From: Crassostrea angulata
Lineage: Eukaryota
Assembly (NCBI RefSeq): GCF_025612915.1
Contig: NC_069115.1
Coordinates: 25,791,757-25,855,756, forward strand
DNA length: 64,000 nucleotides
Reading direction: 5' to 3'
The translations under genes were made by a program, and so were the position numbers. Each line of letters starts with the position of its first letter. Position 1 is the first letter of the stretch. The notes below the pieces were generated by a model. The model was not told the origin of the DNA, did no database searches, and saw only the letters and a program-made list of their open reading frames with translations. Below, piece by piece: positions 4,347 through 64,000 of the stretch.

Positions 4347-5519
4347 GTGTCGGATCAAAAGATACAAGGTTATAAGATGAGATATAAAAAAGCACTAAAA
4401 ATAACCAACGACACGAACAATAAAGTAAAATATTGTCAAATTTTCGGGACAACCCGTCCCTTCTTGGTTGACAACAGAAACAACCTCGATGATTTTATTA
4501 CCTTTGTCAATTCTTTCCATCATTCTATCAAATTTACGACTGAAATTTCCTCATTCAACAACACGTTTCTTGACACTACTTCAACTTTAGTCGATGGTAA
4601 ACTCGATTTCAATCTTCATACTAAACCTACAGATTCCCACCTCTATTTAATGACGTCTAGCTGCCACCCACCTCATACGTTTAGAGGCATACTAAAAGGC
4701 CTAGCCACCAGAGTCAGACGTATTTGTTCAACTCAAGAACTATACTCTGAGCAAAGTCAACTCCTAAAATCCCACTTATGTGCCAGGGGCTACAGCTTGC
4801 ACTCTGTACAGAATGCAATTGATGATTTAGCTAAAGAGGATCGTTTATCCCTTCTGAAATATAAACCCAAAAACGAAGACAACAAGGTCCCATTTGTCAC
4901 TACTTACCACCCTGTCCTTAGGGGCCTAAATGCAGTCCTAAAGAAGAACCTACCAATCCTTTACAGTAATGATAAAATGGTTGAGGTTTTCAAAAACCCC
5001 CCGATGGCAGCTTTCAAGCGCCCTAGAAACCTTAAGGACATGGTGGTAAGAACCAAACTAAAGAACCCTCTGCCTAATGGTGGCTTTAGAACTTGTTCTG
5101 ACACCAGATGTCTGTTGTGCAAACACAGCTCTGATGCAGACGACTTCTCTAGCCCCATTACTGGCCGTACTTACAAAATTTTCGCAAATACTTCTTGTCG
5201 TACGGACAATTGTGTATATCTTATCAATTGTAAATTTTGTCACAAACAATACGTAGGGGAAACAGGAGACCTCCGCAGGCGCATCAATAATCATCGTTCC
5301 ACCATCAAAACTAAGAAAATTAAAGAACCCGTCGGGGAACATTTTAATTTAGATGATCACAAATGGGAGGACATGATGGTTTTGGTCATTGATCACAACC
5401 CTAACTGGACAGATGCGGAGAGAAAAAATAAAGAAAAATTTTGGATGCATAGACTGAAGTCATTCCGCCCTGACGGCATTAACAAATTAAGTGACTTCAC
5501 CAAAATGAACATCAACTAA
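4347..5519 (+). CDS. PLE ORF: RT C-terminal remnant plus linker plus GIY-YIG endonuclease
   Basis: GIY-YIG motifs and CCHH-like finger, as described for the PLE above. Confidence 0.7.
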
Positions 5520-7517: not shown

Positions 7518-8898
7518 GAAATTGAGAAATTTTCAAAAACTCTTCTAAAAAACCATTAGGCCAGGAAAGCTGAAACTTGTGTGGAAGCATCATCAGGTAG
7601 TGTAGATTCAAAGTTGTGAAAATCATTACCCTTGGGGAAAGAGTAGTGCCACAATGGAGGGTCGAAGTTTTACATAAGAATATATAGATCAGTAAATCTT
7701 TAAAAATATTCTTCTCAAAAACTAATCAGCCAGGAAAGCTAAAACTTGTGTGAAAGCATCCTCAAGTAGTGTTGCTTCAAGTTGATAACACCATGACCCC
7801 CAAGGTGTAGGGTAGGGCCACAATGTGGGGGAGGGGGGGAGGTTGAAGTTTTACAAAGGAATATATAGGGTAAATCTTTAGAAATCTTCTTCTCAGAAAC
7901 CATTAGGCCAGGAAAGCTCAAACTTGTGTGGAAGCATCCGCAGGGAGTGTAGATTTAAAGTTGATAACATCATGATCCCCAAGGTGTAGGGTTGGGCCAC
8001 AATGGTGGTGGTCTAAGTTTAAGATATATAATATGTAGAATAAATCTTTAAAAATTTTCATCTCAAAAACTAGTCAGCCAGGAAAGCTGAAACTTGTGTG
8101 GAAGAGTTCTCGGGTAGTTTAGATATAAAGTTGAAAAAAATCATGACCCCCAGGGGTAGGGTGAGGCCAAAATTGGAGATCTATTTTTACATAGGAATTT
8201 ATAGAGTAAATCTGTGAAAATCTTCTCAGAAACCAATTGGCTAGAAAAGCTGAAACTTGTGTGGAAGAATTCTCAGGAAGTCGTGAAAACCATGACCCCC
8301 GGGGATAGGGTGGGGCAACAATGGGGGGGGGGGGTTAAGTTTTACATAGAAAAATATATAGAGTAATCTTTTCTTCTCAGAATCTAATCAGCCAGGAAAG
8401 CTGACCGTGGGGGTAGGGTGGGGCCACAATGGGGTGGGGTCAAAGTTTTACATAGGAATATATAGAGTAACTCTTTAAAAGTCTTCTCCTCAAGAACCAT
8501 TTTGCCAGGAAAGCTGAAACTTGTGTGGGAGCATCCTCAGGTAGTGTAGATTCAAAGTTGTTAAAATCATGATCCCCAGAGGTAGGGTGGAACATAATTG
8601 GGGGGGGGGGGTTGGTTGAAGTTTTACATAGGAATATATATTGTAAATCTTTAAAAATCTTCTTCTCAGAAACTAGGAAAGCTGAAACTTGTGTGGAAGC
8701 ATCCTCAGGTAGTGTAGATTCAAAGTTGTAAAAATCTTGATCCCCGGGTTAGGGTTGGGCCACAATGGGGGTGTTGAAGTTTAACATACTTATTAGGAAT
8801 ATGTAGAGTAAATCTTTAAAAATCCTCTTCTAAGAAACTAGGAAAGCTGAAACTTGGAAGCATCCTTAGGTAGTGTAGATTCAAAGTTGTAAAAATCT
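7517..8898 (+). repeat. Family A satellite array of about 8 monomers of 165-170 bp, preceded by (CT)n. It continues at 9803-10010 after a 904 bp insertion.
   Basis: Repeated aaagctgaaacttgtgtggaagcatcctcaggtagtgtagattcaaagttg...cccgggggtagggtggggccacaatggggg...ttttacataggaatatatagag. Confidence 0.85.
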
Positions 8899-12874: not shown

Positions 12875-12890
12875 TAGCTCACCTGAGCCA

Positions 12891-12922
<32 letters not shown>

Positions 12923-13631
12923 GTCCGTTGTCTGTTGTTGTCGGCGTAGTCATCGTCGTCGTCGTTGTCGTCATCATAAACTTTTCACATTTTCATCTTC
13001 TAATCAAGAACCACTGGGCAGATCTTAAACAAATTTGGCACAAAGCACCACTAGGTAAAGGGGATTCAAGTTTGTTCAAATCATGGTCCCCGGGGGTAGG
13101 GTGGGGCCACAATTGGGGGATAAATTTTTATACAGGAATATATGGAGAAAATCTTTAAAAATCTTCTTTTTAAAGACTATTTGGCCAGAAAAGCTTAAAC
13201 TTGTGTAGAGGCATCATCGGGTAGTGTAAATTCAAGTTTTCAAAATCACAGTCCCTAGTGGTAGGGCGGGGCTGTGATGGCGGTTTTACATAGGAATATA
13301 TCGAGAAAATTTTTAAAAATATTCTGGGAAAGTTTTGCAGATTTATGTTTGATTGAACCATGATTCCCTAGAGAAAAGTGGGGCCATGAAATGAGGGGGG
13401 GGGGGGGGGGGGTATATAGGAATAGAGAAAAATCTTCTTACAGGTACAACAAAAGGGGCTTGGTATTTACCAAAAAAAAGGAGGTGGATAAAAATTGGCA
13501 GATTTTCAAATTTTTTAAGAAAGATCTACTGTACTAAGTTGTCAAGATATTTTGATACTGTAATGCTAATTTGATCTGAATTTAGGCAATTGTTGCTCAG
13601 GTGAGCGATGTGGCCCTTGGGCCTCTTGTTT
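12875..13631 (+). mobile_element. Family A composite element (pearl or Helentron-like): head, (GTCR)n-like tract, about 4 satellite monomers, then a tail. It is inserted into a family B element.
   Basis: Head is tagctcacctgagccaaaggctcaagtgagcttttctgatcac. Tail is ...gttgctcaggtgagcgatgtggcccttgggcctcttgtt. Empty paralogous sites at 3161-3166 and 41241-41246 show a precise insertion without target-site duplication. Confidence 0.7.
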
Positions 13632-37934: not shown

Positions 37935-37950
37935 TAGCTCACCTGAGCCA

Positions 37951-37982
<32 letters not shown>

Positions 37983-38089
37983 GTCCGTTGTCTGTCGTCG
38001 TTGTCGTTGTAAACTTTTCACATTTTAATCTTCTTCTCAAGAACCACTGGGCAGATTTCAACCAAATTTGGCATAAAGCACCACTAGGT

Positions 38090-38127
<38 letters not shown>

Positions 38128-39901
38128 CCCTCTTTAAAAGGGAGATAATTGAGAATTATTGAAAATTTGTTGGTACTTTTCAAAAATCTTCTTTTAAAAA
38201 ACTATTCGGCCTGAAAAGCTTAAACTTGTGTGGAGGCATCCTCAGGTAGTGTACATTCAAGTTTGTTCAAATCATGGTCCCAGGGGGTAGGGAAGGGCTA
38301 CAAGAGGGGGATCAAGTTTTACATAGGAATATATAGACAAAATCTTTAAAAATCTTCTTTTCAAAAACTATTTGGCCAGAAAAGCTCAAAGTAAAGTGGA
38401 AGCATCCTCAGATAGTGAAGATTCAAGTTTGTTCAAATCATGGTCCCCAGGGGTAGGGTGGGGCCACAATTAGGGGATCAAGTTTTACATAGGAATATAT
38501 AGAGAAAATCTTTAAAAATCTTCTTCTCAAAAATTATTAGGCCAGAAAAGCTCAAATTAAAGTGGAAGCATCCTCAGGTAGTGTAGATTCAAGTTTGTTC
38601 AAATCATGGTCCCCGGGGATATGGTGGGGCCACAATGGGGGAATGGATTTTTACATAGGAATATATAGAGAAAATCTTCTTCTCAAAAACTATTCAAATT
38701 AAAATGAAAGCATCTTCAGGTAGTGTAGATTCAAGTTTGTTCAGATCATTGTGCCTGGGGGTAGGGTGGGGCCACAATAGGGGGGATCAATTAAGTTTTA
38801 CATAGGAATATATAGAGGAAATCTTTAAAAATCTTCTTCTCAAAAACTTTTAGGTCAGCAAAGCTCAAATTTGAGTGGAAGCATGGATTTTTACATAGGA
38901 ATATATAGAGAAAATCTTCTTCTCAAAAACTATTCAAATTAAAATGAAAGCATCTTCAGATAGTATAGATTCAAGTTTGTTCAAATCATTGTCCCTAGGG
39001 GTAGGGTGGGGCCACAATTAGGGGATAAAGTTTTATACAACAATATATAGAGAAAATCTTTAAAAATAATTCTTTTAAAAATTATTTGCCCAAGAAAGCT
39101 CAAATTGGCGTGTAACCATCCTCAGATAATGTAGTTTCAAGTCTGTTCAAATCATGGTCCCTGGGGGTAGGGCGGGGCCACAATGGGGGATAAATTTTTA
39201 TAAATATAGAAAATCTTTAAAAATCTTCTCAAAACTATTAGGCCAGGAAAGCCCAAATTTGAGTGGAAGCATCCCCAGATCGTATAGATTCAAGTTTGTT
39301 TAAATAATAGTCCAGGGGTATGGTGAGACCACAATGGGGGATGAATTTTTACATAGGAATATATAGAGAAAATCTTTAAAAATCTTCTTTTTAAAGACTA
39401 TTTGGCCAGAAAAGCTCAACTTGTGTAGAGGCATCCTCGGGTAGTGTAAATTCAAGTTTGTAAAATCACAGTCCCTAGTGATAGGGCGGGGCCGTGATGG
39501 CGGTTTGAATTTTTACATAGGAATATATAGAAAAAATCTTTAAAAATATTCTGTGAAAGTTTTCGGTCCAAAACTCAGTATTTAGTGTGAAAGCACAGGT
39601 TATGCAAATTTAAGTTTAATGAAACCATTATTCCCTAGAGAAAAGTGGGACCACGAAATGGAGGTGGGGGGGGGGGGTATATAGGAATAGAGAAAAATCT
39701 TCTTACAGGTACAACAACAAAAGGGGCTTGGTATTTACCCAAAAAAAAAAGAGGTTGATAAAAATTGGCAGATTTTCATTTTTTTTTTTAGCAAGATCTT
39801 AGTACTTAGTTGTCAAGATATTTTGATTCTGTAATGCTAATTTGATTAGAATTAAGGCAATTGTTGCTCAGGTGAGCGATGTGGCCCCTGGGCCTCTTGT
39901 T
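37935..39901 (+). mobile_element. Family A composite element: head, about 10 monomers, tail
   Basis: Same head (37935) and tail (39860-39901) as the 12875 copy. The terminal monomer variants are shared with the copies at 12875 and 56215. Confidence 0.7.
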
Positions 39902-40142
39902 GTTTCTCATTTGATGAATTAGACTTAACATCTTTGATTCCCCAATCTTGGTTAAAAAGCAGTTCATAGTTAAATAAACTTGTACCAAAAATAATTTGAA
40001 AAATTGTTAATTCATACTTCATCTTATTTGGATTCTTTTTTTAGTTTAGTTGTTCTAAAAGTCATTAAGATTTTTATTAATCCATACTTAGAATAATTTA
40101 TGTTTTGTTCAGTCGTATCATGAATCATTCGTTTTTTTAGCT

Positions 40143-40239
40143 CACCTTAGCTGAAAGCTCCAGTGAGCTTCTCTGATCACTTTTTGTCTGGGGTCCATCG
40201 TTCTGTCTGTCTGTCCATCTGTCTGTATACTTTTTAGCC

Positions 40240-40277
<38 letters not shown>

Positions 40278-41060
40278 TTTTTGTCCTGTGTCCATCTGTC
40301 TGTCCGTCCGTCCATCTGTCTGTCTGGCTGTAAACTTTTTACATTTTCAACTTCTTCTCCAGAACCAATTGACCAATTTCAATTAAACTTGACACAAAGC
40401 ATCATTTGGTAAAGGGGATTCAAGTTTGTTAAAATGAAGGCCTTTCAAGGGGACATAATAAGGATTTATTAAAAATTTGTTGATATTTTTCATAAATCTT
40501 CTTCTCATAAACCATTTGGCAAGAAAAGCTGAAACTTGTTTTGAAGCATCATCAGATAGTGTAGATTCAAGTTTGTTCAAATCATGATCCCCGTGGGTAA
40601 GGTGGGGCCACAATGGGGGTCAAGGTTTTACATAGAATACACTGAGTAAATCTTTAAAAATCTTCTCCTCAGAAACCAATCAGCATGGAAAGCTGAAACT
40701 TGTAAGGAAGCATTCTGAGTTAGTGTAGATTTGAAGTTGTGAAAATCATGTCCCCTGGGGATAGGATGGGGCGAAAATGGGGAATCAAACTTAAACTTAG
40801 GAATATATATATTGTAAATCTTTTAAAATCTTCTTCTCAAACACCATTTGGCCAGAAAAACTAATTTATAAAAACTTGTGTGGAAGCATCCTCAATAAGT
40901 ACAAATTTAAGTTTTCTAAAAACCACTAAAGCTTCCCTAGAAAAGCTGTAACTTTACTGACAGCAACCTCAGATAGATTCAACTTTTTTCATATCAAAAT
41001 CTTGAGGAGTAGGGTGGGGCCACATTGAGTATCCAATTTTACAAAGAAAAATATTTTAAT
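40143..41060 (+). mobile_element. Family A element with a duplicated head (40143 and 40243), GTCY-rich tracts and about 4 monomers. No tail.
   Basis: Two tandem heads, ttagctcaccttagctgaaagctccagtgagc and tagcccacctgagctgaaagctcaagtgagc. Confidence 0.6.
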
Positions 41061-41149
41061 TCATAAAAACTAAAATGTTATCATATATGGTTTTATTTAT
41101 ATGCACGCATTTTAACATATTGCTGATTCTTTCAAATTGTTTAGATTTT

Positions 41150-42003
41150 GGCCCCTGGAGAATTAATGGCCCACACAAGGGGTTCAGAGTTTGATATAGG
41201 TTTATACTAGTATCCCATATATAAACATATGTTTTGGATCTTGTTGAGAACTGTAATGCTCAACATGTGATATGACTATATGTAACCCAGGCAGTAGACA
41301 GAACACCAGTGAGGGTCATACAATGTATTTATTCAATATATACAAAAAACCTGAAACATACAACATTGACTCATTTGACAATTATCTCAGAATACGGTAC
41401 AATAACTTGGATAAAGATTATTTAATATATAGCATGGAATTGTTAAATTATAAACATAGAATATATTTATAAGTAATAAATTACACAAGAATTACCAGAC
41501 ACCGGCAGCTAATCGCAGACAAAGCTTGCGCTTAATCTTCATACATACAGGTCTGTCCCCTCTCAAGGCAAGACAAAGTGTGCGCGGGCCTGGTTAGTTA
41601 GGCGGGAAGATTGGTTAGTAGAAGTTAAATTTAGAATGTTGTCAGACAGGTCAAACGGGTAGTCGAATGGTCAAATAAAAATAAACAATTACATGTGGAC
41701 AATCTCACCTGGAGATGTAAATAAAACACACACACATGCACACAGAAACAATTACGTTTACAAATAGACAAACATTATATATTAATTACTTACACTGGTT
41801 ACATATAGAATCATCCTGTTAGAAAAGGGACTTGATTATAAACATAAGAATCTCAGGGTGAAAAAAATTTGGACTTTTATTTATACAAGAGCTCCATGTA
41901 TTATTATACATTGTCCAGATAGTTTGTATTATGACTCCTTTAAACTGATTTTATCATACATATTGCTGCTCAGGTGAGCGATGTGGTCCATGGGCCTCTT
42001 GTT
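41150..42003 (+). mobile_element. Family B element interrupted by a nested TIR MITE at 41281-41803
   Basis: 5' part at 41150-41280, 3' part at 41806-42003 ending ctcaggtgagcgatgtggtccatgggcctcttgtt. Confidence 0.6.
41281..41803. mobile_element. MITE of about 520 bp with TIRs TGTAACCCAGG and CACTGGTTACA, flanked by a TA or TATA target-site duplication
   Basis: Flanks are gacta-TA|tgtaacc and ggttaca|TA-tagaatc. Uninterrupted copies of the host element read gactaaaaaatc or gattataaaatc. Confidence 0.55.
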
Positions 42004-45155: not shown

Positions 45156-46613
45156 TCAGTTAGAAAATTTAACATATTTTTTACTAATTTTAAATCTGCC
45201 ACATTCAAAGTCATCAACTACTCTTGGTAAAAGTTTGTTGAAGTAAAAACAACATAGTCTTGAAATAGCTGCTTCACAAAACTGTTGGTCATATTGTACA
45301 TCAATGACCTTGTATTCATTAGTTGTCCAAATAACAAGTTTGCACAGCTGCATATGTGTTACATGCAAAGTTAACTGCATTTGAAGGTAATAGCCCCTTG
45401 AACTGTTATGCTTAAAATATAATGTACCATTTTGCAAGGATTTCACAACATCATATTTACCAATTGTAAATAAGCTGTCAAGTGTTTGATCATTCTTAAG
45501 TATTGGACATTTAATTTCCAAAAGACATTTTGAACCATCAGCATTGGTTACTATTCCATCTGGGGAAACACTTAGCCAGGGCTCTTCACCTTCTTGTCCA
45601 TGTCTAGTAAATTTGTTTGATGTGAAGGAAGGGTACATATGTTCTCTTAAGAAGTTATCACTATTTGTAGTGTCACGAACGGGAACCTTGTGGTGCTCAG
45701 TACTGCCAGTTATTCTTATTTTTCTACTGTTGTGCCACAATTCAGATTCACTTTGTGAAATTGTTGCCATCGATAACGATTGAATTTGGGCATCATTAAG
45801 TTTAATGTACATGTACCTGTTATAAAACGCACAACACTTTTCACAAGATAGTTCACCTGTATGCTCAGTACGAGGCTCGGATGAAGATTCGAAAAGAGAT
45901 TTGTTTATATTTGCGTGCATAGATTTACTTAAAAGTGAATTTTCTAAAAGAAATAATTCTTTAAGTTCTGAGTTTTCCACAAAATATTTAAAAGATTGAT
46001 ATGATACAAACATTGGGAAGATAGATTTTGTATTTTGTGGTTTTTCAGTATTGTTGTTAACCTCACTGCCATATTTAGGTTTTTTAAAGTCCATCTCTTC
46101 AAGAACACCTGGTTCAAGGTTTCTTGTCGCACCCTTATTCCACTGCATCTGCTCATCTGTACAAGATTTTCCCGTAAAACCTAACCTTACAGCATGCTCA
46201 ATTTTCCACAAAAGTGCGCCTACATGACTGCACGTTTTACTGTTCCCAGCCATACATGAACATCCCCCGTTTAGAATTGTGCCGATCATATCACAGAATA
46301 CCCATGCATTGTGAAACTCTGAATTTATTTTTTGTGACGGGCGCACTTCAGATTTCAGAATAACTGTATTGTGAATAACAAAATGAAGAATTTTCCCGAC
46401 AGAACCGCTTTTAAAATAATTGTAACTGTCCAATGATTTGTAATTTTTCATTTTTTCGCCGTCACATGCTCTACTTAAAATCAAATAATTGTAGATATCG
46501 CCATATTCTACTTGTGGCCACTCACGAATGTCATCCTTCCATTCACCGGTTTTGACGTCTTTTTGGGAAGAAATCATTCGATCAGTATCTTTTTTGCATT
46601 GACTCTTATCCAT
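45156..46613 (-). CDS. Intronless 485-aa ORF encoding a SWIM-type zinc finger plus a YqaJ/lambda-exonuclease-like PD-(D/E)xK nuclease
   Basis: SWIM signature CSCMAGNSKTCSHVGALLW (CxCxnCxH). YqaJ-type motifs ITGSTEHH, WLSVSPDGIV and KCLLEIKCP (motif ExK). ATG at 46611-46613 and stop at 45156. No internal stop codons over 1458 nt in an AT-rich region. TTTATT on the + strand at about 44930 would be the minus-strand poly(A) signal. Confidence 0.7.
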   Translation of the reverse strand: MDKSQCKKDTDRMISSQKDVKTGEWKDDIREWPQVEYGDIYNYLILSRACDGEKMKNYKSLDSYNYFKSGSVGKILHFVIHNTVILKSEVRPSQKINSEFHNAWVFCDMIGTILNGGCSCMAGNSKTCSHVGALLWKIEHAVRLGFTGKSCTDEQMQWNKGATRNLEPGVLEEMDFKKPKYGSEVNNNTEKPQNTKSIFPMFVSYQSFKYFVENSELKELFLLENSLLSKSMHANINKSLFESSSEPRTEHTGELSCEKCCAFYNRYMYIKLNDAQIQSLSMATISQSESELWHNSRKIRITGSTEHHKVPVRDTTNSDNFLREHMYPSFTSNKFTRHGQEGEEPWLSVSPDGIVTNADGSKCLLEIKCPILKNDQTLDSLFTIGKYDVVKSLQNGTLYFKHNSSRGYYLQMQLTLHVTHMQLCKLVIWTTNEYKVIDVQYDQQFCEAAISRLCCFYFNKLLPRVVDDFECGRFKISKKYVKFSN

Positions 46614-46800: not shown

Positions 46801-48310
46801 TATTGATCAAAGGAGTCACATGCAGATGACAGAAATTTTCTTTGGATTTTTAATACTCTTCACTTATTTATAAAATATCTTTGAATCATATTCCTAATAT
46901 TTTAAGGGCAATTTAATACGATTATTACTACTACACGTTACATATTTTATTTAAAAACACGCAGTGAAAAAGTGCTAGGGAGGAGGTCCTAGGAACAGCC
47001 GCATTGATCTTTTAACAATAAACATTTGAGGCAATACACATCGTTTTGACTGGAACTAGGACTTGAAAATGACAAAGTTTTAAAACTTTTTCAATTTGAA
47101 GTTGTACTTTCATGATCAGTGCAAGAAAGGTAGGTATTTCTGATCTGATAATTTACTGATGACATTTGTGGTATATTTAAGAAATAAGGTATGAGTTATC
47201 GTGAATGTTGCAGAATAAGCTCTGAGGTTGAGAATGTTGTTTTGAAATATAAAAGCCGAGGTGATGTGTATCGATCAAAGGAATCACGTGCAGACGACAG
47301 AATTTTTTCTTGGGATTTTAATACTCTTCACTTATTTTTAAAATACCTTTGAGTTATATTCCTAATATTTTAAGGGCAATTTACGATTATTACTACTACA
47401 CGTTATATATTTTATTTTAAAAACACGCAGTGAAAAAGTGCTAGGGAGGTCATAGAAACAGCCGCATTGATCTCTTAAAAATGAACATTTGAGGCAATAC
47501 ACTTCGTTTTGACTGGAACAAACACGTGAAATTGACATGGTTTTAAATCTTTTTATGGTTTGAAGTTGTACTTTCATGATCAATGCGAGACAAAAAGGTA
47601 TTTCTGATCTGATAATTTACTGATGACGTTCGTGGTATAATTAAGAAATAAAGTACGAGTTGTCTTGAATGTTGCAGAATAACCTCCGAGGTCGAGAAAT
47701 GTTGCTTTGAAATATAAAAGCCGAGGCGTTAGCCGAGGCTTTTATATTTCAAACAACATTTCGAGACCGAGGAGGTTATCCTGCAACATTCACGAAAACA
47801 AGAACTTTATTTCTATTCTACTAAAATGTAACAGCCCAGTATTTCTATACAGTTCGTTTCTCCTATAGAGAGACGATGTAGGTCATTTTGAAGGCTGTTC
47901 CGTGTAACCCCAACGGTTTTGTTAGTAATGTTTACATGTGTATCGATCAAAGGAATCGCATGCAGACGACAGAATTTATCTTTGGATTTTTAATTCTCTT
48001 CACTTAATTGTAAAATATCTGTGAGTTATATTCCTAATATTTTAAAGGCAATTTTATACGATTATTACTACTACACGTTATATATTTTATGTAAAAACAC
48101 GCAGTGATAATGTGCTGGGGAGGTCCTAGGAACAGCCGCATTGATCTCTTAAAATTATCATTAGAGGCAATACACATCGTTTTGACTGGAACTAACACGT
48201 GAAACTGACATGGTTTTAAAACATTTTAAAGTTTGAAGTTGTACTTTCATGATCAGTGCGAGACAAATAAGTATTTCTTATCTGATAATTTACTGATGAC
48301 GTTCGTGGTA
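46801..48310 (+). repeat. Tandem repeat of three ~470 bp units. The third unit is separated by a ~200 bp spacer that contains a palindrome.
   Basis: Units start at 46801, 47272 and 47941. Each begins tcgatcaaaggartcac and ends gtgaatgttgcagaataa...aaataaaagccgagg. Confidence 0.8.
47667..47795. repeat. Head-to-head palindrome formed by the 3' end motif of the 470 bp unit. Arms are 47667-47727 and 47735-47795.
   Basis: The reverse complement of the right arm matches the left arm at about 85% identity. The centre is gccgaggc gtta gccgaggc. Confidence 0.75.
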
Positions 48311-49160: not shown

Positions 49161-50945
49161 TTGTTCATGTTTACTGAATGAAATTTTTGAAAATATAATT
49201 TATCTATAATTGCACATTTTTTCGCTTATTAAACATATATACTTCTTATCCATCATGCTTTCTATCATAATCAAGTAATTTTCTATTTCAACTATTTCAA
49301 GGTGTAGTGAGGCACCTTAACACTCATCGGACAGCCTCCTTGGATAATGAACTTTGGTTTAGAATATGCATGCATTTGTGCTTTAAGATTACATTGCATT
49401 TTTATACCACTGAAAGATAGCTATATACATGTACATGTATATTACGTATATCAGGTTTTTTCTGCGTCATGTTTTTTCCGCGAATCGCAGCCTAGAATGG
49501 TAACTATATAAAATTTATACAAATCAAATTTGCACTATTTCAAGTCACATTGAAAATATATATAATTCACGATTGTTTAAACTTGTGAGGTAAGAGGGAA
49601 AAAGCCTCTAAAATGTTGATCTTTGTAATGAAAAATTCGGACAATGAAACCATTTTCACAATTTCCTTAATGTGAAAGTATTACCGATAATTATTTTCAG
49701 AGATGCAAACAGTCATAGATGTACTGTTACATATACTGGTAGCTCATCGGTTTGCGTAAGGAAAGCGACCGTTTTAATTAGCTTGTTAATGGATTATTCA
49801 GTAAACAACAAGGCTTACAAGGCGGGGTTCAAAGTTTAACAAAGAAATTCATAGGTAAAATGTTTAAAAATCTTCTTCTCAAGAACCACAGCACCAGAAA
49901 AATCCACACAAAAGGTTGTATATAGTGAAGATTCAAAATTGTAAAAATCTCGACCCTCGGTCCAAAACTGGGGCCCCTGGCGGGGTTAAAAGTTTATCAT
50001 AGAAATACATAAGAAAAATGTTTACAAAATTTTTGTTCCATTTATTCAACTAAATTGTGCACCAAAATACCCAAATGTGTCTCCCTGATTATTGACAACT
50101 CATTGCATAAGTATATAAGTTTGTTTAATCAAGAAATGACGGATGAATACGATAAAGTGTAAAAATTCACTAAATATTATTTTAGTTTATCGCTTACAGT
50201 TTAATTGGAGACTGTGCCGAATAAAAATAAAGATTAATATGTAAAGGACTATGTGCGGTTTGGTCAAATATCTGCCCCCAATTTTAACCAATTTTTAAAT
50301 ATTACTGTATATAAATCAAATCTTCATAAATCAATGTACAGTGGACGCCTTTCACTTTAATCTTGATTTTAGTCATCATTGCGCATTCGCTGTTTATCTA
50401 TGACGTCATCCAAATGACCTAATTCTCGCAAATGTGCAAACAATCAAAAATATTCTCATTTTTGCTTTATATTTTGCATTCGGAAATATAGAGCACAGGT
50501 CTGCTCAAGTACGATTTTAACATATGTTTTTAGGGTCTTTCGTCTTCAGCGGAAGACCCTACTATTATTCTATTGTTTCTTTTTCACTTTTTTTCTTTAT
50601 TATTAAGGTCTTCCGTTTTCAACGGAAGACCTTATTGTTTTCGTTAGGTTTCATTTGACCTATTATTTTTCTTGTTTTTTTTCCTGCACCAAATTTTTCA
50701 AAACCATATACATTAAAAACAATTCGACGGATTTTCACGAAATTTTCACAGATAAAAGGGAGTACCTAAAGCTATGCATACGCATCTTTTCGAATATGAC
50801 GTCACTTCCGTTCGTCAACGTCGTTCAATTTACTTTTTTCAAAAATTCATTTTGTCCAGCAAATATTTAAAAAATGGTTGAAGATAGAAACTTCAAATTT
50901 TCAGCGATGATAGATCTACCTTTGGAAGGATGCCCTTAGGTTAAA

Positions 50946-51229
50946 TGGTTAACGTCCGTCACTTCCGGTCGTCACCAGAAGGAAAGACAAAAAATCGTTT
51001 TTTTCAACTTTTTTCTTATTTGATATTTTTATGTAGGGTTGATAGTGACCCTTTCACTGATTCAGAATATGTAATTTGTTTTAAAATTGAACGACGCATT
51101 CTCGAGATATCTAGCATCAAAGTTTTGAAGCGAAAGTCCGAATAGCTCAGTCGTTAGAGTCGTGGACATGTGCCCAGGCGACCCGTGTTCAAGCCCCGAG
51201 TGCCGATATTTTTTTTACCGAAATTTTTG
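50946..51229 (+). repeat. Module G copy 1: stem-loop CTTCCGG-tcgtca-CCGGAAG, a body, then a tRNA-derived segment with Pol III A and B boxes followed by a T(8) run
   Basis: TAGCTCAGTCG at tRNA positions 8-18 and GTTCAAGCC at positions 52-60 of a roughly 71-nt unit. The sequence does not fold into a canonical cloverleaf. Confidence 0.5.
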
Positions 51230-52446
51230 ACATTTTCAGATCTAACTAACGATGTTTTGAACCTTAACGGAATTTTTTTTTTAGTTGATGACATCATTTC
51301 CGTTTTTGAGATATTGACATTTTAAGGAATTTTAGGGTGTTGGTTTGTGCAAGAGTGTTCTCATGACCTACTTACGATATCGATTTCAGAATTTCAAGGA
51401 TGATAAATAAAAGATTGTTAATTTGTACAAAAGCATTTATATTTGCCAAGCACAAGAATTACCAGAGCTCGGTAGGGAACGAAAATTGAGATAAAAAAGC
51501 TTTGTAATTTTGCATGCTTTTCTCGCAATTATTTTGTTGAGGCATTTTTTGAAATATTTTTATTTACAAGATCTTTTGTTTGACATCATGAAAACGGGCT
51601 TGTCACTCAAATTAGCGACCTAGAACCCTTGAAAGTTTTCACTTTATAACCAAAAACGGTTAAGATTTAGATATTGCTGTCGCTGCAAATGTTGTTCATT
51701 ATGATCTTATTAATTTCGTAACAATAATTTTTTGTTCGGGTATTGCTTAATATGAGTGTAATAAGGTTGTTACCACGTATTTTTATTTCATTTGGAAAAA
51801 ACGGGGTATTTGTGCGCTGCAAATGTTGTTCATTGAAAAAGGCGTTCTATGTGATCTTGTCTACGTCATAAAATAGTTTAATGTTGAAAAGTAAAATTCA
51901 TTTGTCGAACTTCAAACATTTGAAACCCACCACGTTGAGTGTACATTTACATAACACGGGCCGAGGAGATGCTGCGCTTGTGGACAACCGATTCAATTCA
52001 CTGTAGTTAGGACACATGCTTCTCGTGTTTATACGTTATCACACATTTGAATGTTCATTGATTCTTTATTAAATTATTTCAATTCAAAAATTAGCGTTGA
52101 TGACGTCATATCAAAATCTAAAAATCGGACGGAAGACCTCTTTGTTGCTCGCAACGAGATCGTGTCTAGTTATCATTCTTTTTTTGTCTTACAAATTTTG
52201 TGCAAGCAATTTCTCGAAGATGGCTCATTTGATTTTCTTCAAATTTTAAGGGTTGATGTGTCGGCATCTGAAGTTTGTACCGCCGTTTCAATTTTTTGAT
52301 AATCACTTCCGGTCGGAAGTTATCGTCCGTTTACGATTTTTAAAAGTCAATTTTGTCAGCTAGAGATCCAAAAAACGAATAAAGATATAGAGCTGAAATT
52401 TTCAGTGAAGATAGACATCAATTTTACCTGTTCCAACATGGTCATA

Positions 52447-52729
52447 AAAACGTCCACCGTCACTTCCGGTCGTCACCGGAAGGAAAGATAAAAAATCGAT
52501 TTTTTCAACTTTTTGCTTTTTATATATTTTTCTAACGGGTTGATAGAGACTCTTTTACTTATTCCGAATATGTAATTTGTTTTGAAATCAATTGATGTGT
52601 TCCCGAGATATTAAGCATCAAAGTCCTGAAACAAGAGTCCGAATAGCTCAGTCGTTAGAGTCGTGGACATGTGCCTAGGCGATCCGGGCTCAAGCTTCGG
52701 GTGCCAAAATTTTTTTTTCTAATTTTTTG
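52447..52729 (+). repeat. Module G copy 2, 1501 bp downstream of copy 1. Same architecture, ending in T(10).
   Basis: About 85% identical to copy 1. Confidence 0.5.
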
Positions 52730-53059
52730 AGTTGATAAACAATATAGTCTTAAAAGTGAAGGATTTTATCTCATTTACTCAAAAATCGGACAGAAGACCC
52801 ACTCGTTGCTCGCAACGAGAACGATCTAGTTCTTCATATAATTATACACGTTATACTAAAAACTGGTACTTATTAGTTACACAAAACATTTTTATTCTGA
52901 TATTTTTTGATATACGACTATTGGTACAGAAATTTAAATTTATGATATCTATATTAAAGAAAATGTCAGCTCGACGCCTTTGTGGCCGTTCCGGCCTTTG
53001 ATATGTATAGGGAAGATTCTAAAATGTAAAAATTGTGACCCTTTGACCAAAACTCAAAT

Positions 53060-53137
53060 CAGCTTCTCTGAAGCAGCTTCTCTGATCAAACTTGTCTGTC
53101 GTCCATGTGTCTGTACAAACTGTTCACATTTTCAACA

Positions 53138-53171
<34 letters not shown>

Positions 53172-53511
53172 AAGCACAAAGAATCCTTAGGCAAAGGGGA
53201 TTCAAAATTGTGAAATTAAAGGACCACAACATTTATCAAGGGAAGATCATTAGGAATTATTGAAAAATTTGAGAATTTTTTTAAAATCGTCTTTAAAAAA
53301 ACCCCATTTTGCCAGGAGAGCTGAAACTTTTATTAAGCATTCTCGGGTCGATTCAAAGCTTTGAAAATCATGACACCCCCCCCCCCCCCCTCAAGCAAGA
53401 TCTACTGTACTTATTTGTCAAGATATTTTGATTTTGAGACTGTAATGCTAATTTGATCAGAGTTAGAGATACTGTTGCTCAGGTGAGCGATGTGGCCACT
53501 GTGCCTCTTGT
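53060..53511 (+). mobile_element. Compact family A element (degenerate head, one monomer, tail), 250 bp upstream of the MVP exon at 53763
   Basis: Tail is gttgctcaggtgagcgatgtggccactgtgcctcttgtt. A C(15) homopolymer lies at 53385-53401. Confidence 0.55.
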
Positions 53512-56214: not shown

Positions 56215-56231
56215 TTAGGTCACCTGAGCCA

Positions 56232-56263
<32 letters not shown>

Positions 56264-56291
56264 GTCCGATGTCTGTCGTTGTCGTCATCGT

Positions 56292-56322
<31 letters not shown>

Positions 56323-57758
56323 AAGAACCGCTGGGCAAATTTCAACCAAATTTGGCACAAAGCACCACTAGGTAAAGGGGATTCCAGTTTGTTTAAATGA
56401 AGGGCCACGGAAAATTATTGAAAATTTGTTGGTATTTTTCAAAAATCTTCTTCTCAAAAACTATTCGGCCTGAAAAGCTTAAACTTGTGTGGAGGCATTC
56501 TCAGGTAGTGTAGATTCAAATTTGTTCAAATCATGGTCACCGCGGGTAGGGAGGGGCCACAGGGGAGGGTCAAGTTTTACATATGAATATATAGAGAAAA
56601 TCTTTTAAAAATCTTCTTCTCAAAAACTATTAGGCCAGGAAAGCTCAAATTAAAATGGAAGCATCTTCAGGTAGTGTAGATTCAAGTTTGTTCAAATCAT
56701 GGTCTCTGTGGGTAGGGTGGGGCCACAATAGGGGGGATCAAGTTTAACATAGGAATTTATAGAGGAAATCTTTAAAAATCTTCTTCTCAAAAACTATTAG
56801 GCCAGGAAAGCTTATATTTGAGTGGAAGCATCCTCAGATAGTGTAGTTTTAAGTTTGTTACAATCATGGTCACCGGGGGTAGCGTGGGGACACAATTGGG
56901 GGATCAAGTTTTACATAGGAATATTTAGAGGAAATCTTTAAAAATCTTTTTCTCAAAAACAAGAAAGCTCAAATTGGCGTGTAACCATCCTCAGATAATG
57001 TAGATTCAAGTCTGTTCAAATCATGGTACCTGGGGGTAGGGCGGGGCCACAATGGGGGATAGTTTTTATACATAGAGAAAATCTTTAAAAATCTTCTATT
57101 AGGCCAGGAAAGCCCACATTTGAGTTGAAGCATCCCCAGATCGTATAGATTCAAGTTTGTTTAAATAACAGTCCAGGGGTACAGTAAGGCCACAATGGGG
57201 GATGAATTTTTACATAGATATATAGAGAAAATCTTTAAAAATCTTCTTTTTAAAGACTATTTGGCCAGAAAAGCTTAAACTTGTGTAGAGGCATCCTCGG
57301 GTAGTGTAAATTCAAGTGTGCAAAATCAGTCCCTAGTGATAGGGCAGGGCTTTGATGGCGGTTTGAACTTTTACATAGGAATATATAGAGAAAATCTTTA
57401 AAAATATTCTGGGAAAGTTTTCGGTCCAAAACTCAGTACTTAGTGTGAAAGCACAGGTTATGCAGATTTAAGTTTGATGAAACCATGATTCCTTAGAGAA
57501 AAGTGGGGCCACGAAATTTTGGAGGGGGGGGGGGGGTACATAGGAATAGAGAAAAATCTTCTTACAGGTAGAATAACAAAAGGGGCTTGGTATTTACCAA
57601 AAAAAAAAGAGGTTGATAAAAATTGGCAGATTTTCAATTTGTTTTAGTAAGATATACTGTACTTAGTTGTCAAGATATTTTGATACTGAAATGCTAATTT
57701 GATTTAGAATTAAGGCAATTGTTGCTCAGGTGAGCTATGTGGCCCCTGGGCCTCTTGT
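56215..57758 (+). mobile_element. Family A composite element (head, about 7 monomers, tail) inside the last MVP intron
   Basis: Head is taggtcacctgagccaaaggctcaagtgagc. Tail ends ggcccctgggcctcttgtt at 57758. Confidence 0.7.
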
Positions 57759-59764: not shown

Positions 59765-62700
59765 GTCCAGTGCAGTTTGTTCAAATCTTGGTTCCCGGGG
59801 GTAGGGTAGGGTCACAATAGAGGGATCAAGTTTTACATAGGAATATATAGAGAAAATCTTTAAAATCTTCTTCTCAAAGCATCCTCAGGAAGTGTAGTTT
59901 CAAGTTTGTTCAAATCATGGTCCCCGGGGGTAGGGTTGGGCCACAATAGGGGGGGGGCAAGATTTACATAGGAATATATAGAGAAAATCTTTAAACTTTC
60001 TTCTCAAAAACAATTATGCAAGAAAAGCTCAAATTAAAATGGAAGTATCCTCAGGTAGTGTAGATTCTAGTTTGTTAAAATCATGGTCCCCGGGGGTAGG
60101 GTAGGGCCACAGTAGGGGGATCAAGTTTTACATAGGAATATATAGAAAAAATCTTTAAAATCTTCTTCTCAAAAATTATCCGGGGAGGAAAGCTCAAATT
60201 GAATTGGAAGCATCATCAGGAAGTGTAGTTTTAAGTTTGTTCAAATCTTGGTTCCCGGGGGTAGGGTAGGGCCACAATAGAGGGATCAAGTTTTACATAG
60301 GAATATATAGAGAACATCTTTAAAATAGAAAAGCTCAAATTAAAATTGAAGCATCCTCAGGAAGTGTATATTCAAGTTTGTTCAAATCATGGTCCCCGGG
60401 GGTAGGGTTGGGCCACAATAGGGGGGGGCAAGATTTACATAGGAATATATAGAAAAAAATCTTTAAACTTTCTTCTCAAAAACGATTACGTCAGGAAAGC
60501 TCAAATTAAAATGGAAGTATCCTCAGGTAGTGTAGATTCAAGTTTGTTCAAATCATTGTCCCCGGGGGTAGGGTAGGGCACGGTAGGGGGATCAAAATTT
60601 ACATAGGAATATATAGAGAAAATCTTTAAAATCTTCTTCTCAAAAAGTATCATGTCAATAAAGCTCATATTAAAATGGAATTATCGTCAGGTAGTGTAGA
60701 TTCTAGTTTGTTCAAATCATGGTCCCCGGGGGTAGGGTTGGGCCACAGTAGGGGGATCAAGTTTTACATAAAAATATATCGAGAAAATCTTTAAAATCTT
60801 CTTCTCAAAAAGTACCAGCGGAGGAAAGCTCAAATTGAAATAAAAGCATCATCAGGAAGTGTTGTTTCAAGTTTGTTCAAATCTTGGTTCCCAAGAATAG
60901 GGTAGGGTCACAATAGAGGGATCAAGTTTTACATAGGAATATATAGAGAAAATTTTTAAAATCTTCTTCTCAAAAATTATCAGGTTAGGAAAGATCAAAT
61001 TAAAATGGAAGCATCCTCAGGAAGTGTATATTCAAGTTTGTTCAAGTCATCGTCCCCGGGGGTAAGGTTGGGCCACAATAGGGGGGGGGGGGTCAAGATT
61101 TACATAGGAATATATTGAGAAAATCTTGAAACTTTCTTCTCAAAAACGATTACGCCAGGAAAGCTCAAATTAAAATGGAAGAATCCTCAGGTAGTGTAGA
61201 TTCAAGTTTGTTCAAATCATGGTCCCCGGGGGTAGGGTAGGGCAACAGTAGGGGGATCAAAATTTACATAGGAATATATCGAGAAAATCTTTAAAAACTT
61301 CTTCTCAAAAAGTATCATGTCAATAAAGCTCATATTAAAATGGAATTATCGTCAGGTAGTGTAGATTCTAGTTTGTTCAAATCATGGTCCCCGGGGGTAG
61401 GGTTGGGCCACAGTAGGGGGATCAAGTTTTACATAAAAATATATCGAGAAAATCTTTAAAATCTTCTTCTCAAAAAGTACCAGCGGAGGAAAGCTCAAAT
61501 TGAAATGAAAGCATCATCGTGAAGTGTAGTTTCAAGTTTGTTCAAATCTTGGTTCCCAAGAATAGGGTAGGGCCACAATAGAGGGATCAAGTTTTACATA
61601 GGAATATATAGAGACAATCTTTAAAATCTTCTTCTCAAAAATTATCAGATTAGGAAAGATCAAATTAAAATGGAAGCATCCTCAGGAAGTGTAGTTTCAA
61701 GTTTGTTCAAATCATCGTCCTCGGGGGTAAGGTTGGGCCACAATAGGGGGGGGGGGTCAAGATTTACATAGGAATATATTGAGAAAATCTTTAAACTTTC
61801 TTCTCAAAAACGATTACGCCAGGAAAGCTCAAATTAAAATGGAAGAATCCTCAGGTAGTGTAGATTCTAGTTTGTTCAAATCATGGTCCCCGGGGGTAAG
61901 GTAGGGCCACAGTAGGGGGATCAAGTTTTACATAGGAATATATAGAGAAAATCTTTAAAATCTTCTTCTCAAAAAGTATCATATCAGAAAAGCCCATATT
62001 AAAATGGAATTATCCTCAGGTAGTGTAGATTCTAGTTTGTTCAAATCATGGTCCCCGGGGGTAGGGTAGGGCCACAGTAGGGGGATCAAATTTTAAATAG
62101 GAATATATAGAGAAAATCTTTTTCTCAAAAAGTATCAGGGGAGGAAAGCTCAAATTGAAATCGAAGCATCATCAGGAAGTGTAGTATCAAGTTTGTTCAA
62201 ATCTTGGTTCCTGGGGGTAGGGTAGGGCCACAGTAGGGGGATCAAGTTTTACATAGGAATATATAGAGACAATCTTTAAAATCTTCTTCTCAAAAAGTAT
62301 CAGGGGAGGAAAGCTCAAATTGAATTGGAAGCATCATTAGGAAGTGTAGTTTAAAGTTTGTTCAAATCTTGGTTCCCGGGGGTAGGGTTGGGCCACAATA
62401 GAGGGATCAAGTTTTACATAGGAATATATAGAGAAAATCTTTAAAATCTTCTTCTCAAAAAGTATCATGTCAGAAAAGCTCAAATTAAAATGGAAGCATC
62501 CTCAGGAAGTGTAGTTTCAAGTTTGTTCAAATCATGGTCCCCGGGGGTAGGGTTGGGCCACAGTAGGGGGATCAAGATTTACATAAGAATATATCGAGAA
62601 AATCTTTAAAATCTTCTCAAAAAGTACCAGCGGAGGAAAGCTCAAATTGAATTGAAAGCATCATCAGGAAGTGTAGTTTCAAGTTTGTTTAAATCTTGGT

Positions 62701-62916
62701 TCCCGAGAATAGGGTAGAGTCACAATAGAGGGATAAAGTTTTACATAGGAATATATAGAGAAAATTTTTAATCTTCTTCTCAAAAATTATCAGGTTAGGA
62801 AAGCTCAAATTAAAATGGAAGCATCCTCAGGAAGTGTAGTTTCATGTTTGTTCAAATCATCGTCCCCAGGGGTAGGGATGGGCAACAATAGGGGGGGGGG
62901 GTCAAGTTTTACATAG
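59765..62916 (+). repeat. Family A-related satellite array in the + orientation, about 19 monomers with a roughly 665 bp four-monomer higher-order repeat
   Basis: Monomer subtypes a, b, c and d recur in the order b-c-d-a with a period of 663-666 bp (b-type at about 60429, 61095, 61758). Confidence 0.85.
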
Positions 62917-64000
62917 TTTTTGAGAAGAAAGTTTAAAGATTTTCTCTATATATTCCTATGTAAAACTTGATCCCCCTACTGTGGCCCAAACCTACCCCTG
63001 GGGACCATGATTTGAACAAACGAAAATCTACACTTCCTGAGGATGCTTCCATTTTAATTTGAGCTTTCCTGGCGTCATAGTGTTTGAGAAGAAAGTTTAC
63101 AGATTTTCTCTATATATTCCTATGTTAAACTTGATCCCCCTACTGTGGCCCAACCCTACCCCCGGGGACCATAATTTGAACAAACAAGAATATTCACTTT
63201 CTGAGAATGCATTCATTTTAATTTGAGCTTTCCTGGCGTCATAGTTTTTGAAAAGAAAGTTTACAGATTTTCTCTATATATTCCTATGTAATACTTGATC
63301 CCCCTTCTGCGGCCCAACCCTACCCCCGGGGACCATGATTTGAACAAACTAAAATCTACACTACCTGAGGATGCTTCCATTTTAATTTGAGCTTTCCTGG
63401 CGTCATAGTTTTTGAGAAGAAAGTTTAAAGATTTTCTCTATATATTCCTATGTAAAAGTTGAACCCCCAACTGTGTCCCAACCCTACCCCCGGGGACCAT
63501 GATTTGAACAAACTAAATCTACTCTACCTGAGGATGCTTCCATTTTAATTTGAGCTTTCTTGGCGTCATAGTTTTTGAGAAGAATGTTTAAAGATTTTCT
63601 GTATATATTCCTAAGTAAAACTTGGTCCCCCTCCTGTGGCCCTACCCTACATCCGGGGACCATGATTTGAACAAACAAGAATATTCACTTCCTGAGGATG
63701 CTTCCATTTTAATTTCAGCTTTCCTGGCGTCATATTTTTTGAGAAGAAAGTTGACAGATTTTCTCTATATATTCCTATGTAAAACTTGATCCCCCTACTG
63801 TGGCCCAACCCTACCCCCGGGGACCATGATTTGAACAAACTAAAATCTACACTACCTGAGGATGTTTCCATTTTAATTTGAGCTTTCCTGGCGTCATAGT
63901 TTTTTTGAAGAATGTATAAAGATTTTCTCTATATATTCCTAAGTAAAACTTGATCCCCCTACTGTGGCCCAACCCTACCCCTGGGGACCATGGTTTGAAC
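62917..64000 (-). repeat. The same satellite in the inverted orientation, running to the end of the window
   Basis: Monomers are reverse complements of the upstream array. The junction is catag|tttttgagaag. Confidence 0.85.

Follow-up and report, generated by a model that had tools for sequence, protein, structure and literature searches.

The most abundant oyster satellite is described under two names, the classical Cg170/HindIII satellite and CgiSat01a, which have been equated by the authors of the Crassostrea gigas satellitome (PMC8268682), and the reads assigned to it diverge from the published consensus by about 11% on average. The same family supplies the central repeats of transposable elements, among them Cg_HINE, whose features are described in PMC7492417. 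In a model linking the two modes of existence, the lengthening of a Helitron-borne Cg170 array costs it its mobility and makes it recombine more, until it stands as a satellite array on its own (PMC8268682). Higher-order organisation, in which several distinguishable monomers recur together as a larger unit, has been proposed for one array near the end of a 64,000-nucleotide stretch of Crassostrea angulata DNA (hereafter the window), and full-text literature searches found no published report of such organisation for Cg170/CgiSat01. The 665-bp periodicity of this array is a small local duplication inside a Cg170 array, an incipient higher-order repeat, and thus a further case, in a satellite already characterised in detail, of a substructure that is very familiar among satellites. 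The features discussed below are collected in Table 1.

Table 1. Positions in the window of the two satellite arrays, the parts of the forward array, and the Helitron-N2 elements
Feature	Position	Strand	Content	Basis
Cg170/HindIII array	59775-62911	+	~19.5 monomers, 128-170 bp each	TRF, nhmmer monomer map, blastn to CgiSat01a
Three-monomer block	59904-60375	+	b-e-a'; related to the unit	Identity matrix, alignment
Higher-order unit, copy 1	60376-61035	+	b, c, d, a; 95.6% to copy 2	
Higher-order unit, copy 2	61036-61700	+	b, c, d, a	Identity matrix, block comparison, diagnostic strings
Higher-order unit, copy 3, partial	61701-62034	+	b, c; 95.2% to first two monomers of copy 2	
Order-breaking monomers (n = 3)	62035-62520	+		Identity matrix, alignment
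Further partial unit	62521-62911	+	d-a-b*; final b cut off at inversion junction	
Tail-to-tail inversion junction	62896-62976	.		Inverted-repeat search, sequence reading
Inverted Cg170 array	62912-64000	-	6.6 monomers of 164 bp; continues past window end	TRF
Complete Box1-Box3-array-Box2 Helitron-N2 elements	12875-13629, 37935-39900, 40235-42002, 56220-57758	+		Box search
Partial Helitron-N2 elements	11480, 26333, 53117-53511 and elsewhere	+		Box search
Further box positions	3368, 13832, 40138	+		Box search

Identity of the satellite

A 165-bp tandem array was called by TRF at 59877-62895 and was extended to the limits given in Table 1 by mapping of individual monomers, for which a conserved 13-mer anchor and an nhmmer profile were combined. 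Intact monomers of this forward-strand array follow one another head to tail with an anchor spacing of 162-170 bp, and the TRF periods of this array and of the inverted array that adjoins it are 165 and 164 bp, respectively, the TRF consensus of the latter being the reverse complement of the former.

The satellite is oyster Cg170/HindIII, published as CgiSat01a, under which name the monomer core was located in the supplementary sequence files of the C. gigas satellitome (PMC8268682 Data S1). Full-length monomers of the forward array share 87-92% global identity with CgiSat01a (blastn median 88%) and lie in reverse-complement orientation relative to the published consensus, whereas monomers of the inverted array are nearer to that consensus, with a global identity of 91-96% (blastn median 94.7%). 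Identity to the sister variant CgiSat01b reaches only 76-82%. No Rfam family matched anywhere in the window, and a comparison of the conserved monomer cores with metagenome and viral-contig collections found no related loci.

Across the window nhmmer gives 79 monomer hits to the family, which together occupy 11.1 kb (17% of bases), and the family is present at no fewer than 14 further places beyond the two arrays. Most of these bases are central repeats of complete Helitron-N2_CGi/Cg_HINE elements, and all hits share the orientation of the forward array with the exception of the seven that make up the terminal inverted array. Other satellite material in the window comprises a nine-monomer array of CgiSat01b type at 7521-8883 (80-86% identical to the CgiSat01b consensus), which has no Helitron boxes nearby, and a CgiSat09-like fragment together with Box4/Box5 matches of the unrelated Helitron-N3 group (49818-50033; 50607-52820).

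A four-monomer periodicity

Ungapped autocorrelation of the forward array yields a muddled picture owing to indels, its peaks being ranked 165 > 1485 > 665, and monomer-by-monomer global alignment was used in its place. Core monomers four units apart are 92-98% identical, compared with 80-86% at offsets of one to three. In the global pairwise matrix the monomers starting at 60376, 60542, 60706 and 60871 match those starting at 61036, 61206, 61371 and 61536 at 92, 97, 98 and 96%, respectively, while those at 61701 and 61870 match their counterparts in copy 2 at 97 and 93%. Aligned as blocks over 666 columns, the first two copies are separated by 22 substitutions and 7 gap positions and are 95.6% identical, as against 83.2, 82.9, 83.5 and 83.8% when the copy 1 block is shifted by one, two, three or five monomers. 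A chance origin of the lag-4 signal was ruled out by permutation of the monomer order, its mean being equalled in one of 20000 shuffles of the ten core monomers and in 25 of 20000 shuffles of all 19 monomers when the maximum over lags 1-8 was taken.

The original prediction of a period of about 665 bp built from four monomer types in the fixed order b-c-d-a is borne out by these figures. All the diagnostic strings on which it drew are present and recur at 660-665 bp (for example at 60590/61255, 60646/61311, 60764/61429, 60811/61476 and 61094/61758), and the type-specific strings appear in that order through two full copies and a half copy. At a spacing of about 665 bp, identity within the array rises clearly above the level set by single monomers, and the observation therefore stands. 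Recency, also proposed at the outset, holds relative to the age of the monomers, since the copies differ by 3-5% and the monomer types by 14-20%. Within the window the four types are private to the forward array, each monomer finding its best matches inside the array, and the unit therefore arose locally; its private variants include AGTATCATGTCAATAAAGCTCAT and TTACATAAAAATATATCGAG.

How far the label 'higher-order repeat' applies depends on which of its usual attributes is considered. The multimers are more alike than adjacent monomers (95.6% versus 83%), and distinguishable types recur in fixed order (b-c-d-a, b-c-d-a, b-c). Many homogenised copies over a long array were not found, there being only 2.5 contiguous copies in an array of 3.1 kb, so that the label rests on a small sample.

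Monomer order outside the core

The full order of the forward array reads a' / b e a' / b c d a / b c d a / b c e e a' / d a b* / inversion, with 14 of the 20 monomers assignable to the four types and only 2.5 units contiguous. On neither side of the core is the order b-c-d-a kept, as it breaks both in the three-monomer block that precedes the core and in the order-breaking monomers that follow it. The preceding block had been taken for a first copy of the unit with one monomer deleted. Type c is indeed missing from it, but the middle monomer (60070) is not of type d: it belongs to a d-like type, e, that lacks both d diagnostics and is closest to the monomer at 62191 (94%). The last monomer (60235) is a-like (a') and has been cut to 141 bp by a 24-bp deletion, while the b monomer that opens the block shares 95% identity with the b monomer that comes next.

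Downstream of the core, the monomer at 62035 is d-like with a 9-bp deletion, that at 62191 begins a-like and goes on as type e, and that at 62356 is a mosaic, a-type in its 5' half and c-like in its variable segment. Beyond them recognisable types return, the monomer at 62521 being 95% identical to the core d monomers and that at 62683 being 93-95% identical to the core a monomers, and the monomer at 62846 contains the b-type poly-G tract. Truncated monomers occur at 59775, 60235 and 62035. The mosaic and truncated monomers point to recombination within the array.

As a separate feature of the monomers, a G-quadruplex-type motif, GGGGGTAGGGTWGGGCCACARTAGGGGG, is found in most of them (59926-62901 on the forward strand and 63136-63981 on the reverse strand) and is disrupted in all a-type monomers (CCCAAGAATAGGG...GAGGG). 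The poly-G run of b-type monomers varies from 8 to 13 G.

The inverted array and its junction

The array had been called terminal, a description that suits its place at the end of the window and nothing further, because at 62912 the repeats switch strand and run on to position 64000. At the junction two inverted arms of 21 nt (62896-62916 and 62956-62976), 95% complementary to each other, enclose a spacer of 39 nt, and the change of strand at 62911/62912 falls at a pentamer, CATAG, common to both arrays. Together the two arrays form an imperfect palindrome on the kilobase scale, whose halves are only 84-85% identical and represent different sub-variants. The arrays inside Cg_HINE elements always have the same orientation (PMC7492417), so that the two arrays cannot belong to one canonical element.

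In the visible part of the inverted array (62912-64000) the monomer identity matrix has no preferred lag and reveals no higher-order pattern. Ungapped peaks at lags of 491, 655 and 819 were considered as a sign of such a pattern and were rejected, as they rest on short overlaps (434 bp at 655 and 270 bp at 819).

Mis-assembly and chimeric reads are classically encountered at satellite arrays and inverted junctions, and wrongly joined satellite reads might have created the order of the repeats, the additional copies or the change of strand at 62912. The 22 substitutions and several indels by which the copies differ mean, however, that they are not a duplicated consensus, and the low identity and differing sub-variants of the inversion arms argue against both a fold-back read artefact, which is unlikely on these grounds, and a very recent inverted duplication. 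An assembly artefact is very unlikely as the source of the pattern.

Helitron context and array edges

A search with the Helitron-N2_CGi end-boxes of Table S3 of PMC8268682 recovered at least nine box-bearing elements or fragments in the window, with Box1 and Box2 matching the published versions at 97-98%. The complete element that lies closest upstream of the array (56220-57758) comprises a subterminal inverted repeat, a GTC/GTT microsatellite, Box3, six monomers, and a 3' palindrome with a T-rich end.

At the array itself such boxes are missing from both edges. Neither Box1 nor Box3 occurs on the left between 57759 and 59774, a flank that is unique within the window and unrelated to the satellite, and no Box2 occurs on the right, or anywhere after 57758 up to the window end at 64000, the forward array ending instead against the inverted one. 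A decayed Box3 or an inverted monomer in the left flank was considered and dismissed, local alignment there being at the level of shuffled sequence and the flank having no self-match in the window. The array begins at position 1 of the nhmmer model, whereas in five arrays after or near Box3 (starting at 7521, 11684, 38181, 40494 and 56440) the first monomer is partial and begins at model position 72-89. By published criteria the array is therefore standalone, at least on its visible side.

Several further observations concern the neighbouring elements in their own right. All nine Helitron-N2 elements and fragments that carry boxes (within 2749-57758) lie in forward-strand orientation, as does every other locus of the Cg170 family as far as 62911. 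Homology between Helitron-N2 copies stops at the element ends, which indicates separate insertions rather than segmental duplication; selection inside a long intron and local rolling-circle hopping are both possibilities for the orientation bias. The last two full monomers of two complete elements (39141-39454 and 57010-57314) are mutual best matches, with 91% identity for 39141 versus 57010 and 94% for 39294 versus 57155, and their own neighbours match them less well, a relation that implies position-specific monomer variants inherited with the element. In one Helitron-N2 element the Box1 region occurs twice in tandem (40134-40323, 97 bp × 2, 88% match).

The window also contains sequence of other kinds. 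An open reading frame at 910-2331 on the forward strand encodes a reverse-transcriptase domain (RVT_1, E 3e-18), and 2 kb downstream of it another on the same strand (4347-5519) encodes a GIY-YIG nuclease domain (E 7e-8), a pairing typical of Penelope-like retroelements; an exact-protein look-up in Logan contigs returned no protein identical to that of the RVT_1 frame. A YqaJ-like exonuclease domain is encoded by a reverse-strand frame of 485 aa at 45156-46613. This frame is probably part of a transposon, and its exact protein sequence also occurs on a 1.9-kb Logan contig from run SRR327421. An unrelated tandem duplication, two copies of a 464-bp unit with an 87% match, occupies 46801-47726.

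Origin of the 665-bp unit

The combination of diverged monomer types, near-identical multimers and mosaics at the edges leads us to prefer out-of-register exchange or slippage as the source of the periodicity, and a local tandem duplication of a four-monomer block in a Helitron-derived Cg170 array, brought about by one of these processes, is its likely origin. Four monomers that had already diverged (b, c, d and a, some 665 bp in all) have been duplicated in tandem, yielding 2.5 contiguous copies and one displaced partial copy. Judging from the pattern, the mechanism may have been homologous exchange out of register, whether as unequal crossing-over or between sister chromatids, or else slippage during replication, in either case between monomers four units apart. 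The array itself would go back to the repeats at the centre of a Helitron-N2/Cg_HINE element, as its neighbours in the window do, and would have lost the element ends while it expanded as a standalone array. This descent is suggested by those neighbours and by the literature rather than by remnants at the array, and the published model of a passage from Helitron-borne to standalone arrays accommodates the locus well. Identities of 95.6% between copies 1 and 2 and 95.2% between copies 2 and 3, higher than the 92.8% between copies 1 and 3, fit stepwise duplication or conversion between neighbours, the counts being small.

The pattern from which we infer exchange would also fit slippage or rolling-circle amplification of a 665-bp circle, and the last of these can be framed as an explanation of its own, in which the tetramer was amplified in one step, either by rolling-circle replication of an excised circle (eccDNA) followed by reinsertion or by the Helitron rolling-circle machinery. 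A region rich in rolling-circle transposons offers a setting for it, and the similar divergence of successive copies fits a near-simultaneous origin. Yet the duplicated unit has no Helitron ends, the lower identity of copy 1 to copy 3 is what stepwise duplication or neighbour conversion would be expected to leave, and the mosaic monomers indicate homologous recombination, so that amplification in one step is rather improbable. With local duplication by exchange or slippage as the preferred origin, the 665-bp periodicity is a by-product of satellite turnover, and no cellular function is implied.

Relation to centromeric satellite domains

Higher-order repeats had been taken in the original prediction as typical of centromeric or pericentromeric satellite, and the locus might accordingly represent the edge of a centromeric or pericentromeric Cg170 domain homogenised in the manner of primate alpha satellite. 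In FISH, Cg170 probes strongly label the centromeres of 4-7 of the 10 chromosome pairs and colocalise with CenH3 in gonadal nuclei, although the satellite missed the enrichment criteria in CenH3 ChIP (PMC7348941). A standalone array of 232 monomers is known in C. gigas, but 91.4% of the extracted CgiSat01 loci in that species are Helitron-associated and are distributed along the arms of all ten chromosomes (PMC8268682). The window itself, strongly enriched for the family as it is, displays this dispersed, transposon-borne mode in its many Helitron-N2 elements and fragments. Higher-order periodicity is not specific to centromeres, the unit has only 2.5 copies whose order decays within 2 kb, and the visible inverted array is free of any such pattern; a unit present 2.5 times within 3.1 kb is compatible with centromeric and dispersed settings alike. 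The centromeric reading is unlikely, and is kept at a low probability because of the high local density of the family and because the inverted array runs off the window end at 64000.

A bolder and somewhat more doubtful extension of it can be drawn by analogy. Long standalone Cg170 arrays of oysters could be chromosome-specific higher-order repeats that form CenH3-binding cores, and the window could then be a decayed, inverted edge of one such core beside a one-directional pile-up of Helitron-N2 elements. If this were true, bivalve centromeres would gain the sequence definition that they currently lack.

Comparison with known systems

On its own the finding carries little weight, the phenomenon being an ordinary one. 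It does document that multi-monomer units can arise in the most abundant oyster satellite once an array leaves the transposon frame, in keeping with the published model of growth by recombination, and genome-wide such units could mark actively recombining Cg170 arrays and help to separate centromeric from dispersed ones.

With the higher-order repeats of alpha satellite the locus shares monomers that are 14-20% diverged and arranged in fixed order, and multimers that are far more alike (95-96%). It differs in extent, with 2.5 contiguous copies in 3.1 kb as opposed to hundreds to thousands, and in the state of those copies, which are 4-5% diverged instead of near-identical.

With Cg_HINE/Helitron-N2_CGi, non-autonomous Helentrons (also the pearl elements of C. 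virginica), it has in common the central repeat family and its orientation, which are those of at least eight neighbouring elements in the window, the one at 56220-57758 displaying the features published for Cg_HINE (PMC7492417). Unlike these elements, the array is without Box1 and Box3 on its left and without Box2 on its right, starts at a non-canonical monomer position, and abuts an array of opposite orientation, an arrangement never seen inside one element (PMC7492417).

The closest likeness is to Cg170/CgiSat01a as described by Tunjic-Cvitanic et al. 2021 (PMC8268682; CL1/CL2 in Vojvoda Zeljko et al. 2020, PMC7492417), with which the locus shares a monomer of 164-166 bp, head-to-tail arrangement, 87-96% identity to the consensus, and co-occurrence with Helitron-N2_CGi boxes, those in the window being 97% identical to the published ones. 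From that satellite the forward array is set apart as a local variant that has diverged to about 88% identity with the consensus and carries four private monomer types in fixed order.
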